A stretch of DNA of 64,000 nt from Octopus vulgaris (Eukaryota): the NCBI GenBank assembly GCA_951406725.2, contig OX597841.1, positions 20,336,001-20,400,000 of the forward strand, read 5' to 3'. A program made the position numbers. Below, one piece after another: positions 48,401 through 56,075 of this stretch; position 1 is the first letter of the stretch; every line of letters begins with the position of its first letter.

Positions 48401-51400
48401 TGTAATACGATTACAAAGTGAGCTCAATGTGATGTATTCAATGAAAGATTTTAAAAAACCAAGTGTAAGTCATTTAATGAGTTACATTAACAGCACTGAT
48501 CTTGTTGAAGCTATGCCAGAACTCTTCAATCTGTGCAAGTTGATTTTGACAATTCCGTCTACCACTGCTTCTGTAGAGCGATCCTTTTCTGCATTAAGTA
48601 GAATTAAAACATACCAAAGAAATGCGACAGGAGAAAGAAGACTGTCTGGGTTAGCACTAATGTCAATTGAAAAAGATTTATTACAAGAATTGATGAAAAG
48701 AGAAGATTTCTATGAAAATGTGATAGATATATTTGCCCAGAAAGATCGAAGAATTGAATTAATTTTTAAATGAGGTAAATAACATTTTAGAACATTAAAA
48801 AAAAAATTTAATATGTTAAAGGGCATATATTACAGGTTTTGCTAAGTGTTTGTTATAACGTAAGGTTCAACCTTCTTACATCAGTATTGTTTTGCAGGAG
48901 AAATGTTTTGATTTCTTCGTGAAACCTAACCTACATAGATTTCCCTTTCTGTGCTGCTGGGTGGAGTCTATTTACAGCTGTAAATAAGTGTTTTGTTTCA
49001 CTTTCAATAAGTGTCTTGTTTCAATCTCAGAGATGTTGACTTCTGCCACAACAGTTTTGGGAGGCTTTTTACAATGTTGAATTTTCGCTGTCTTTCATTG
49101 TGTGCGTATTCATGTATATTCGTGTATTTTCAATGTGTGAGCATGAGACATAGTCTTTTAATATGCAGAGTTCAGTAAGTATCTGGATTGTCCAGATGTG
49201 ATGGGAAGAGACCTGACAGCCTCACCCTGTGCCCCTGGTCGCAAGGCAGATGCCTTGTCTAGGATGTCACAATTAGTGATTGCTTTGCTTCTTCTCACAT
49301 CCCTGATGCTGCGGTCAGGGAACGAAATCTTGAAATACTTCATTTTCCGTCCATTCGAGACGTTTGGTGGGGTTTGACCACTTACTGTGAGATTCCTGAC
49401 TTTACTGGCAACTTATCTTGCAGAGGTAACTGGTGAGGCTCATGAGGGTGCTTGGCTGTTCCAGCGCATCAGCCTTGCCATCACCCATGGCAATGCTGCA
49501 AGTGTGCTGGCGTGTCTCAATCAATAGCCATTAGAAAGGTTTCCCAATGTCCCCAACTTTTCAACCCAAGGTGGTGAATTGTTTTCTTTTTTGTTTTCCT
49601 TTTTTCTTTTTCTTTTTTTCTCTCTCTCTCTTTTCCTTTATAATTTTTTCAATTATGTTCTCTGTTTTGTCTAGTTTTCTAGTTTAATTTTGTAAAATGG
49701 TAAACACTGTGAAGGCAATACAAATTTTAATCATATTTACTATAAAATTAATAAATAGATTATAAATAAAGTCATATTTAGCATGCAAATAATTAACTCC
49801 ATGTTTGAAAATTTAAAAACAGTGAAAATTGAGAGTTAAAATAATTTTATTTTTATTATCTGCCCTGCTACATGATTCAGTACAGCTCATAGTAAAATCA
49901 AAAAAATTGATAAAAATTTGAGAATTAAAATTAAATTAAATTTTTTTCTAATGGATAAAATTTTACGAAACCTTTACCAATATATTCCTTTAACATTTCT
50001 CTTTCATATCAATATCAATATACTAATTCTTAATCAAAATTAAAAGAATGGCGATTAAAAGAGTGTCGATGCCGGGCGTTACTACTCATCAGTCAACCAG
50101 TTTGGTCTATACATTTTTCTCTTAACTTTTGTTCTACGCACCAGTTTTTAAGTATTTTATGTCTAAATGTAAGCTTATCAGTAGTCAAGCATAATTAAAA
50201 AAACAAAATCTGATTTTGATTAAAACTGAATTAGTGAGACTGCGACAAAAAAAGCTACGTTAAGAATATTAGTCAACTACTACCGTAGTTGAATGATATT
50301 TATATAAGAATTCAACACAGTTTTAACATTTTCTCAGTATTTCTTCTGTATTTGTATGTATCCTGTAAAATAATTTTGTTAGAGATTGAGAAATGACTGA
50401 GTCTTATTTTAATCATCGGAGAATTAAACATAGAACAGATTTAAACATAGTCCATTAGTGACTGGACTAACACACTTCAGTTTCCATTCTATATCAGTCT
50501 GTGCCTATTGGCATTGAAACTCGAAGGAGAATGGTATCAGAATCTTTATCAGGTCTCTTACATAAATAATTAGGAGTGATTAGTGGTAGAAGAGTTCTGC
50601 TGATTATGATATATGTTTGTGCTGAGAAGAAACACTTGAAATTCTTAAATGTAATTCCAATTTAATAGACTTTTTGATTAGATGCTCACATTCTTAGTTT
50701 TTTCAGCCCAGCTGCAAAACTTATCTCTCATAATTAAAGAAACAGCAAGTGTTATCTCCAAGAGCTCCAATAACTACAAGAAAATTGTTTGAAGCAAATA
50801 AGGCCATGACATAGCGAACCTCAATATCATCAGAACTGAGTAAAGTTTGGCAGTCACTGAATAAAGAAACTTGATAAATATCTTTGTTTAAATCAGCTAT
50901 GAAAACATTTTCACCCTGTATGGTCAGTGGCCGTTCAGAAATGCCTTGAAATGGTAGTTTTAGTAATGGTAGTGTTAAACTCCGAACTAAATCACCTCCT
51001 CCTCTGTACCAACAAACAACACATTGAACTTTCTCATCTTTGATAACAATAATGTCTTCACTTGATGTGACACCAATTGCTGAGATAGCTTTGTCTTCAA
51101 TAATAATTCTCTGACTGTAATCATAAGTTTCATCATTGATGTTAAGCACATCTACATAGGAGTTAATTCCACATGATTTAACATCACACGCACACACCAG
51201 TTGATTTTCATTCTTTTTATAAATCATGTTGTAGTTTATCTTAGTGTTGATGGTTTTTAAAAGAGACAGATCTTCTTTGAAGAACATTAATTGTTTTTCC
51301 TCATGAAAGACAACTACAAAACATTCTGCTGACCAACAACATATGTCCTGTGGGATTTTATTTATTTTTCTCTGCTGAATTACGTGACCTTCTGTAGTGG

Positions 51401-54400: not shown

Positions 54401-56075
54401 CATTATCAGTAAATAATATAGCTTTCAGATTCCAATAAGTAACTAACACAGAAGAGCTTGTCATGGGCAGAATCTTTTTAATATGGTAGGGGTCATCAAT
54501 GTAAATTTGATTGTTCAAAACAGGGGTTTGTTTCTGCTGTGAGCAAGTTAACCTTGGCCAAAAGTCTTTATTTCTCTCAACAACATGTCCAACACCGAAA
54601 TAATCAGAAAAGAAAATATTTTTGGTGCCTACAGAAAAATATCGAGCTTTTATCGCAATTTCTCTCTGTGATACACTACCTGCAGATGAAATCTTATAAA
54701 TGATCTTTCCTTGGAGGACATAAAAATAGTTGCCATAAACAGTGAGGTCAGTTGGAGAAGTGAGAGAATGGCTAATAAACTGAAATAACTGTTGACCTTC
54801 AAAATTATAACAAATAATTCTATTTATATTGGCAAATGTTATTAACACGCTATCATTTGTTCCTACGGCGATATTTGCAGGGTCGTCTTTCAGACTAAAT
54901 ATGCTTTCAACTGTATTATGAACCCAGTCTACGAGGTATATTATTTTACTAAACAATTTGATACCTAAAAAGGTACAATTTTTCACAAAAGTAATTTTGT
55001 TAAAGCCACAATGAAAAGTTTTCATTTGACAACTAGAAGGATTGATAAAGATAATTTTTTTCCTGAATGGGATTGTTGCCATAACAGTCTGTTTATCAAC
55101 TCTGGTAAGATCCGTGACTGGAGAAGGACTATGAACAACATTGCAGTCACCGTCTGTTGTGAAACAAGATAAAGTCATTAAATGTCGTGAATAAGTCGCT
55201 ATTCCACCTTCGATTCTGATGATATTTGAAATTGTGTTTGGAGAATCTTTATCTGAAGCACAGAAATTTAATGTTCTGGGCACAGCCGGTGAGAGTGGAC
55301 GAAACTTTTCCAATGGCTTTTGCATGGCAATGTTCTTGTAAAAGAAAGAATTGCCGTTTGTGTATAAGTTAAAACATTGTTCAAGAAAAGAGGCAACTTC
55401 TTTCTGAACAATAGAATCATCAGAACTGGTTTTAAACAATCTGTTTATTGTGTGTTTAAAATCTTGCTTAAAAAGTTCTGTATTTAGTCCTTCACTTTCT
55501 AAGTAAATACAAAATTCATTCTTTTTGATTTTCAGCATTTTCAAATTGTTTGCATATTCTTTCATTGTTAGTTTGTGTCCAATTTTGGACAAAATCCTTG
55601 GTCCTTTAACTATTTCCTGCTTTGTCTGGTCACCTTTATTATGGCTTTTGCTTCTGCAATTTTTTGAAACTTCCTCTGTCATCGCTTCATTTTCATCTTT
55701 ATATTTGTTATAATAATCTGTTAAAGCTGTTTTCATTTTGAATGATGGCATCTTGAAGCTGTCTTCCTCTTCCTTTAATGTTAGATTCATACTTGGTGAC
55801 AAGCTGGCAGAATCGTTAGCACACCGGAAAAAATGTTTTTTGGTATTCTGTCTGTCTTTCTGCACCTGAGAAGACATGTCAAGCAGATCTATAATGAAAT
55901 ATGAACAAAAACAACATTTATTTTCCTGAAAATATTCAAATCTGAAGAAGATATTTACTTCATAATTTTCAAGCATCTTTTATCTTTTACTTGTTTTAGT
56001 CTTTGGACTGTAGCCATGTTGGGTCACCACCTTAAATGGTTTAGTTGAGCAAATTTTAAAGCCTGTTACCTATTG

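Follow-up and report, generated by a model that had tools for sequence, protein, structure and literature searches.

NHL propellers are known as the single recognition domains that end the TRIM-NHL regulators, and they also occur in a few enzymes. A stretch of the Octopus vulgaris genome raises the question of whether, and how, such a domain has been multiplied within one chain. The stretch comprises 64,000 nucleotides of contig OX597841.1 (positions 20,336,001 to 20,400,000 of assembly GCA_951406725.2) and is called the window throughout; all coordinates are those of the window. On its minus strand, an original prediction made from the sequence alone had described a giant single-exon gene for a string of six beta-propellers. 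Here we show that this locus (50721..55877) is an intact, conserved protein-coding gene of Octopus vulgaris, and that the six modules of its product are diverged versions of the six-bladed NHL propeller found at the C-terminus of cephalopod TRIM-NHL proteins. As judged from sequence searches, the gene belongs to a family that is restricted to octopods and consists of old, clustered paralogues.

The long open frame on which the prediction was built is present as described. It runs free of stops from 50721 to 55979 on the minus strand and spans 1,752 codons between two stops. With a local GC content of about 0.33, a stop is expected at about 0.075 per random codon, and a hand calculation puts the chance of 1,752 open codons at about 1e-59. 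The product (P0001) is 1,718 aa long, its whole coding sequence lies within one uninterrupted exon, and its sequence is present letter for letter in NCBI/UniRef. Among the 41 open reading frames (ORFs) of at least 130 aa in the window, 22 fall in a (TA)n tract (1..6244), and the next longest of the other 19 encodes 283 aa.

Translation starts at the conserved ATG 55877 (MSSQ...), the same methionine being used in the orthologues of O. bimaculoides and O. sinensis. Another in-frame ATG further upstream, at 55976, was considered as the start and rejected: it lies inside a repeat arm, and both orthologues begin with MSSQ. Between the two positions stands a candidate splice acceptor, at which a non-coding 5′ exon could possibly be joined. 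The coordinate at which the gene had earlier been made to end, 55888, is the first base after this AG (55890-55889), which accounts for the choice. On the 3′ side of the TAA, only ATTAAA-type variants of the poly(A) signal are found.

Comparison between species indicates that the frame is maintained as a gene. In O. bimaculoides, LOC128251161 (P0002) is 89 % identical to P0001 (1539/1735) and collinear over its full length, with all gaps in-frame. In O. sinensis, LOC115226593 (P0083, a 680-aa model) has the same start and is 97 % identical (640 of 658 aa). Identity between P0001 and P0002 is uneven, at about 72 % in the head (aa 1-163) and about 91 % over the rest by hand count. Purifying selection is argued for because a 5.2-kb frame has stayed open in two species that are 11 % diverged and because conservation is uneven along it. 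The orthologues, at 89-97 % identity, stand far closer than any paralogue (at most 54 %), a pattern of an old host gene and not of a recent burst. As the original prediction required, the protein is not a 1:1 orthologue of any known conserved gene; it is a member of an Octopus family of at least 52 proteins.

The protein is composed of an N-terminal head and six modules (Table 1), with a conserved KFRPL junction immediately before module 1. Two AlphaFold models built with family alignments, one of aa 1-1000 and one of aa 930-1718, show all-beta modules with four-strand periodicity, and pLDDT reaches 80-90 in modules 1, 2, 4 (first half) and 6. When either model was searched against the Protein Data Bank (PDB) with Foldseek, 500 or more matches had E<=0.001. 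Among the matches listed, IFT-A, Utp21, DDB1 and LRP2/LRP4, with E values of 1e-16 to 1e-20, and a 'highly repetitive propeller' head the lists; this reading covers about the best 50 ranks per model, and the multi-propeller identity applies to the rows that were recognised. Models and matches together support the prediction that the body of the protein is a string of beta-propeller modules. Five of these are modelled as roughly complete, and module 5 appears shortened to about four blades, with three blades (aa 1258-1376) followed by a disordered acidic loop (aa 1377-1424; 51606-51749) and a single further blade (aa 1425-1456).

Table 1. Features of the six-module gene of Octopus vulgaris, in window coordinates; residues refer to P0001.
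Feature	Coordinates	Strand	Residues	Description
Complete coding sequence	50721..55877	(-)		From the ATG at 55877 to the last codon, which ends at 50724; stop codon TAA at 50721-50723
Candidate splice-acceptor AG	55889..55890	(-)		Pyrimidine-rich stretch ..cattatAG, 11 nt upstream of the ATG
Head	55242..55877	(-)	1-212	aa 1-104 low-confidence/disordered and charged; three helices at aa 105-174 (AlphaFold)
Module 1	54555..55241	(-)	213-441	All-beta, 21 strands, pLDDT about 80; motif TDLTRVDKQTVMAT at aa 255
Module 2	53772..54524	(-)	452-702	All-beta, 23 strands, six blades, pLDDT about 85; motif TDFCRLDSSSFLVL at aa 508
Module 3	53088..53705	(-)	725-930	Modelled over aa 735 to about 924, three blades with confidence and the following strands with low confidence; motif TNICRWDSSHMGVT at aa 776
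Module 4	52176..52952	(-)	976-1234	24 strands, six blades; motif HHMCRWKSNTLVIT at aa 1033
Module 5	51510..52106	(-)	1258-1456	About 16 strands, about four blades; motif GGVCFSEKYIMVT at aa 1300
Module 6	50727..51464	(-)	1472-1717	About 23 strands, six blades, pLDDT 80-90; motif QDICCWSAECFVVV at aa 1510

The prediction had also pointed to a motif recurring six times, each time preceded by an 'x-x-x-G' turn. All six motifs and all six turns were located in P0001, the motifs at spacings of 253, 268, 257, 267 and 210 aa and the turns at aa 239, 489, 759, 1016, 1283 and 1493. In the AlphaFold models the motif forms the first strand of blade 2 in six of six modules, and the turn closes blade 1. 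The glycine of the turn is the sole invariant column when the six modules are aligned with one stand-alone NHL protein. Such a register, common to all modules, is as expected for true repeats. At the level of sequence the periodicity shows in part: pairwise BLASTP is significant among modules 3-6 (module 4 with 6, E 5e-6; 3 with 6, 8e-4; 4 with 5, 1e-3) and not beyond them (2 with 6, E 0.037; 1 with 6, 0.064), whereas BLASTP of the whole protein against itself detects no internal repeat.

The head has no counterpart in the comparisons made. Against a TRIM-like helical region, hhalign gives a probability of 0.06 % (E 0.76), that is, no similarity; the ESM Atlas holds no look-alike, the best score being 0.77. 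For the helices at aa 105-174, a two-copy complex prediction of aa 95-215 scored 0.00, which is evidence neither way. Pfam finds no RING, B-box or death domain in P0001, and the P0002 model, which starts at the same methionine, adds none upstream.

The relationship to NHL propellers emerges when profiles, and not single proteins, are compared. A profile of modules 3-6 (alignment A2), searched against 1.84 billion proteins, gave 34 matches, 28 of them at E<=1e-10. Its weak tail contains a cuttlefish RING, B-box and NHL protein (P0077, Acanthosepion pharaonis CAE1315789.1, E 6e-8), a B-box and NHL protein (P0079, E 4.5e-4) and two NHL proteins (P0080, E 8.1e-4; P0082, E 9.8e-4), together with a metagenomic WD40/PQQ protein (P0078, E 3.2e-5) and a match of 64 aa (P0081, E 9.4e-4). 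Cephalopod TRIM-like proteins (RING/B-box/NHL) were gathered in a second alignment, A5. This is a genuine TRIM-NHL set, because it matches the solved NHL domains of TRIM2 (5e-21), TRIM3 (1e-20), Brat (1.5e-14) and TRIM71 (2e-12) and also TRIM B-box/coiled-coil structures. Aligned with the octopus family profile by hhalign, A5 reaches a probability of 98.8 % (E 1e-16) over 247 columns, on module 4, and both carry the signature 'GIC.W....VT.P'. The kinship with the propeller that ends B-box proteins, which the original prediction had proposed from general resemblance, is supported by this match.

Taken one at a time, the modules differ in how closely they approach A5. Modules 3 (96.1 %, E 3e-9), 4 (96.7 %, E 4e-10) and 6 (95.0 %, E 4e-8) are clearly and specifically NHL-like in sequence, and module 1 (62.6 %, E 7e-5, 170 columns in register) is probably so. 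The WD40/PQQ protein P0078, used as a control, scores 8.0 % (E 4.3e-3). Module 2 (8.3 %, E 4e-3) and module 5 (26 %, E 7e-4, in register) may tentatively be assigned to the same class by position, motif and fold only. The ESM Atlas places aa 725-965 beside NHL proteins of molluscs, which are about 275 aa long (score 0.91).

The closest known architecture is that of P0077 (656 aa), whose C-terminal part of about 250 aa aligns with octopus module 4 and shares the signature at the start of blade 2. It carries one propeller after a RING, a B-box and a helical region, whereas the octopus protein has six modules and no such N-terminal domains. TRIM2, TRIM3, TRIM71/LIN-41, Brat, Thin and Mei-P26 belong to the same fold class, the six-bladed NHL propeller, and are linked to the octopus protein through the A5 profile; its direct sequence similarity to the solved TRIM-NHL domains is not significant. 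TRIM-NHL proteins are E3 ligases with one NHL domain, and the octopus protein differs in having six modules and no E3 part. Several propellers per chain are found in LRP2/megalin and LRP4 (YWTD), DDB1 (three WD-like propellers), and IFT-A and Utp21 (tandem WD40), but these belong to other propeller classes, with other blade numbers and other contexts (EGF spacers, membrane anchors, obligate complexes). No sequence relationship between them and the octopus protein was found in Pfam, PDB sequence or family-profile searches.

The gene is one of many. We collected 52 family proteins of 944-3,007 aa, all from Octopus (32 from O. vulgaris, 10 from O. bimaculoides and 10 from O. sinensis), and 26 of the 32 O. 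vulgaris members lie on the gene's own contig, which at 29,193,250 bp is chromosome-sized. Paralogues among the 52 are 39-54 % identical to P0001, and no RING or B-box is listed among their precomputed Pfam domains. The same head-plus-six-module layout, collinear over the full length, is seen in O. bimaculoides LOC106873529 (P0005), O. vulgaris CAI9717522.1 (P0059) and an Argonauta protein (P0056); these are 31-54 % identical to the octopus protein and diverge most in the head and module 6. The Argonauta hians protein (GAB1597371.1, 1,913 aa) follows the family profile collinearly through 1,719 columns, 34 % of its residues being identical. Because of this collinearity, the layout is at least as old as the split between Octopus and Argonauta, the latter being classed in Incirrata.

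Beyond octopods, the six-module layout was not seen in the search of 1.84 billion proteins. The source was checked for 20 of the 28 strong A2 matches, all of them Octopus or Argonauta, the remaining eight being short. The searched library includes cuttlefish proteins, and the nearest decapodiform match is only a single-propeller TRIM-like protein. The predicted lineage-specific family is therefore narrower than the cephalopod one first proposed: lineage-specific it is, but confined to octopods among the source-checked matches. Its description as new to the literature holds in that no paper on the octopus family or on tandem NHL propellers was found, and a search of main texts for six LOC identifiers belonging to the family returned 0 papers (expression supplements may list them). 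The genes themselves, on the other hand, already carry annotations, which read 'uncharacterized protein' or 'hypothetical predicted protein'. One table row in PMC8382680 shows a B-box orthogroup expanded in bivalves, which is of marginal relevance here.

Conservation within the family is concentrated in the middle of the protein. Invariant and near-invariant columns, counted by hand in an alignment of 24 members, number 1 in the head and 27, 43, 53, 51, 42 and 18 in modules 1 to 6, so that module 3 is the most conserved module and module 6 the least. These counts show a family with a conserved central core and variable ends.

Two further observations concern the gene models of the family. In four O. 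vulgaris models (P0021, P0034, P0053 and P0105), family modules are linked with C2H2 zinc fingers, with DUF4371, with ankyrin repeats, or with a RING and a protein-kinase C-terminal domain together; these are probably chimeric models in a dense cluster. In another O. vulgaris protein (P0052, 1,018 aa), the head is joined straight to module 4 at a conserved DLTVSDKA boundary and modules 1-3 are skipped; this may be a natural form that lacks three modules, or else an artefact of the gene model.

What, then, might such a protein do? The reading that we favour, and hold to be somewhat better than an even bet, is that this intact octopod gene encodes a six-module chain derived from TRIM-NHL proteins, which serves, by analogy with them, as a multivalent binding scaffold without E3 function. 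The recognition domain of a TRIM-NHL-type gene would have been amplified internally, with the E3-ligase part lost or never included, and the whole six-module gene would then have been duplicated in tandem. Its product would be an intracellular, non-catalytic platform that displays the RNA- or protein-binding propeller faces of the TRIM-NHL type six times per chain. The common core would lie in the conserved central modules; the specificity of each paralogue would come from its head and terminal modules, which vary. An intracellular location is suggested by the N-terminus, which reads as hydrophilic and charged and has no hydrophobic core of a signal peptide, and by the models, in which no long hydrophobic helix that could span a membrane is seen and helices are confined to aa 49-69, aa 105-174 and a few short ones.

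Several results weigh against this reading. Pfam reports no NHL match in P0001 even at E<=10, and single-protein searches reach at best E 0.32 in Pfam and 0.42 among PDB sequences. In the 24 family members examined, the Pfam NHL domain (PF01436) appears once and below threshold (E 0.002, 18.5 bits against a cut-off of 20). The best match of the family profile among PDB sequences is a designed WD-type propeller (E 8e-6), and TRIM71 is reached at E 0.13 only, through a single NHL repeat corresponding to blade 1 of module 4. Modules 1 and 2 together show no significant BLASTP similarity to modules 3 and 4 (best E 0.26). That the modules are individually NHL-like holds for modules 3, 4 and 6, but modules 2 and 5 do no or little better than the WD40/PQQ control. 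The confidence of the two models is moderate overall, with a mean pLDDT of 61.5 and a pTM of 0.35 for aa 1-1000, and 71.5 and 0.48 for aa 930-1718. Among the Foldseek matches listed, the leaders are WD40-type tandem propellers and not NHL domains, and, since each search combined several domains, the TM-scores by query are low (0.13-0.28). That the modules close into rings is deduced from strand counts and Foldseek matches. Six six-bladed propellers, as originally proposed, is too neat a description: strand counts point to six blades in modules 2, 4 and 6, only about four are modelled in module 5, and confidence is low for the second half of module 3. The O. sinensis protein P0083 stops matching after aa 658 and then ends, which could be a frameshift, a fault of the model or assembly, or a truly truncated gene. 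Lastly, the functional part of the favoured reading is drawn wholly from analogy.

The strongest competing explanation, although an unlikely one in our view, is that the protein is a post-transcriptional regulator whose six propellers bind specific mRNA or small-RNA-pathway targets cooperatively, for example in neurons or the germline, and that it has no role in defence. The propellers of Brat, LIN-41/TRIM71 and NHL-2 bind mRNA or small-RNA-pathway targets, and the octopus modules are homologous to the NHL domains of this protein class. RNA binding by the NHL domain of NHL-2, as stated in the abstract of bioRxiv 10.1101/2024.02.13.580109, counts for such a role, as does the good conservation of the central modules across paralogues. 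However, the modules resemble the solved RNA-binding NHL domains only indirectly, and dozens of diverged, clustered paralogues would be unusual for a core regulator.

The same multiplicity leads to a bolder form of the scaffold reading. Many diverged paralogues fit, weakly and by analogy, the recognition of varied ligands, for instance RNA or protein of viruses or transposons, and octopus transposons are very abundant. On this extension, which we regard as distinctly doubtful, octopods would hold a clustered repertoire of dozens of E3-less six-propeller NHL proteins, diversified and encoded in the germline, that sense or trap foreign or selfish RNA or protein inside the cell, specificity being provided by variable ends on a conserved core.

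Improbable, in our estimate, is a second alternative, that the protein is a structural or trafficking scaffold of tandem WD40-like propellers, as in IFT-A, EML or DDB1, and that its resemblance to NHL domains is merely generic propeller likeness. The Foldseek leaders, the designed propeller found by the family profile and the control-like scores of modules 2 and 5, all given above, speak for it. The profile comparison speaks against it, since modules 3, 4 and 6 reach 95-97 % against the TRIM-NHL profile where the WD40 control reaches 8 %. Strand counts, moreover, indicate a periodicity of about six blades per module of about 250 aa, not the WD40-like seven. Pfam finds no WD40 in P0001, and one of the 24 family members has a match to ANAPC4_WD40 (E 0.004). 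Finally, the family is found in octopods only, whereas core scaffolds are usually single-copy and widely conserved.

A locus in such surroundings could also be selfish or decaying sequence, that is, the cargo or leftover of a mobile element or a recently dead copy without host function. A single exon, a multi-copy family and a transposon-rich window would be in keeping with this, as would a reverse transcriptase (RT) fragment 1.5 kb upstream on the same strand, a repeat pair that abuts the 5′ end, family models fused to transposase-like domains (P0034) and the truncated O. sinensis model. But Pfam finds no transposase, RT or integrase domain in P0001, no pair of long terminal or terminal inverted repeats bracketing 50.7-56.0 kb was found, and no second copy or fragment of the six-module gene was found elsewhere in the window. 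On these three grounds the mobile-element reading was rejected. The gap between orthologues and paralogues, and the 5.2-kb frame open in two species with in-frame gaps only, likewise speak for a maintained gene, and we consider selfish or decaying sequence highly improbable. Just as remote is a secreted or membrane-anchored string of propellers (as the YWTD propellers of LRP/megalin or the NHL domain of teneurins) for extracellular ligands: LRP2 and LRP4 are among the listed Foldseek matches, but the N-terminus reads as hydrophilic and charged, no long hydrophobic helix is modelled, and Pfam finds neither EGF nor LDL-receptor modules (Ldl_recept_b) in P0001.

Some features of the surroundings merit description in their own right. 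About 100 nt upstream of the ATG begins an inverted repeat (55975-56027 and 56908-56960) with 53-nt arms that are 85 % complementary and 880 nt apart; a (CA)n run (about 56076-56110) lies within it. It may represent two opposed short interspersed elements or a MITE-like insertion in the promoter or 5′UTR region. Further upstream, the RT fragment at 57428-58201 (-) (RVT_1, E 3.5e-22) and a 142-aa ORF at 58398-58826 (-) without a Pfam match together look like a degraded LINE. A mariner-type transposase fragment is present at 15646-16407 (+) (Transposase_1, E 1e-22).

At the start of the window, an RT frame of a LINE (1 to about 1700, minus strand; RVT_1, E 9e-31) runs off the edge and abuts a (TA)n microsatellite of more than 4 kb (about 1900-6130). 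The latter includes short TAGA-containing stretches, has a GC content of 1-2.5 % over 2001-6000 and accounts for the 22 long ORFs noted above, which are spurious. The RT frame may be a young LINE copy. It corrects the statement, made in the original prediction, that nearly everything else in the window is fragmented: in the ORF list nothing else outside the (TA)n tract exceeds 283 aa, but the RT frame is open for about 565 codons. The 283-aa ORF (39890-40741, minus strand) is adjacent to one of 236 aa (40999-41709, minus strand), and neither has a Pfam match. At 30157-30704, overlapping ORFs of about 170 aa occur on both strands in a region of 0.27-0.30 GC (30-36 kb); this is probably low-complexity sequence.

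The NHL propeller itself was already known. What is new is its occurrence as six modules per chain, the absence of the ligase part and the expansion of the resulting gene. Pfam does not recognise P0001. Through its multiplication the gene has given rise to a family that ranks among the larger lineage-specific ones in octopods and lies for the most part on one contig. If the origin proposed here is true, amplification of a TRIM-NHL domain would give a concrete origin to a block of octopus 'dark' genes and would add one more family to the short list of octopod-specific expansions. The family would also offer a tractable test case for multivalent binding by repeated propellers. And should the more doubtful repertoire of sensors or traps prove real, octopods would have derived a new class of invertebrate recognition molecule from a multiplied TRIM-NHL domain.

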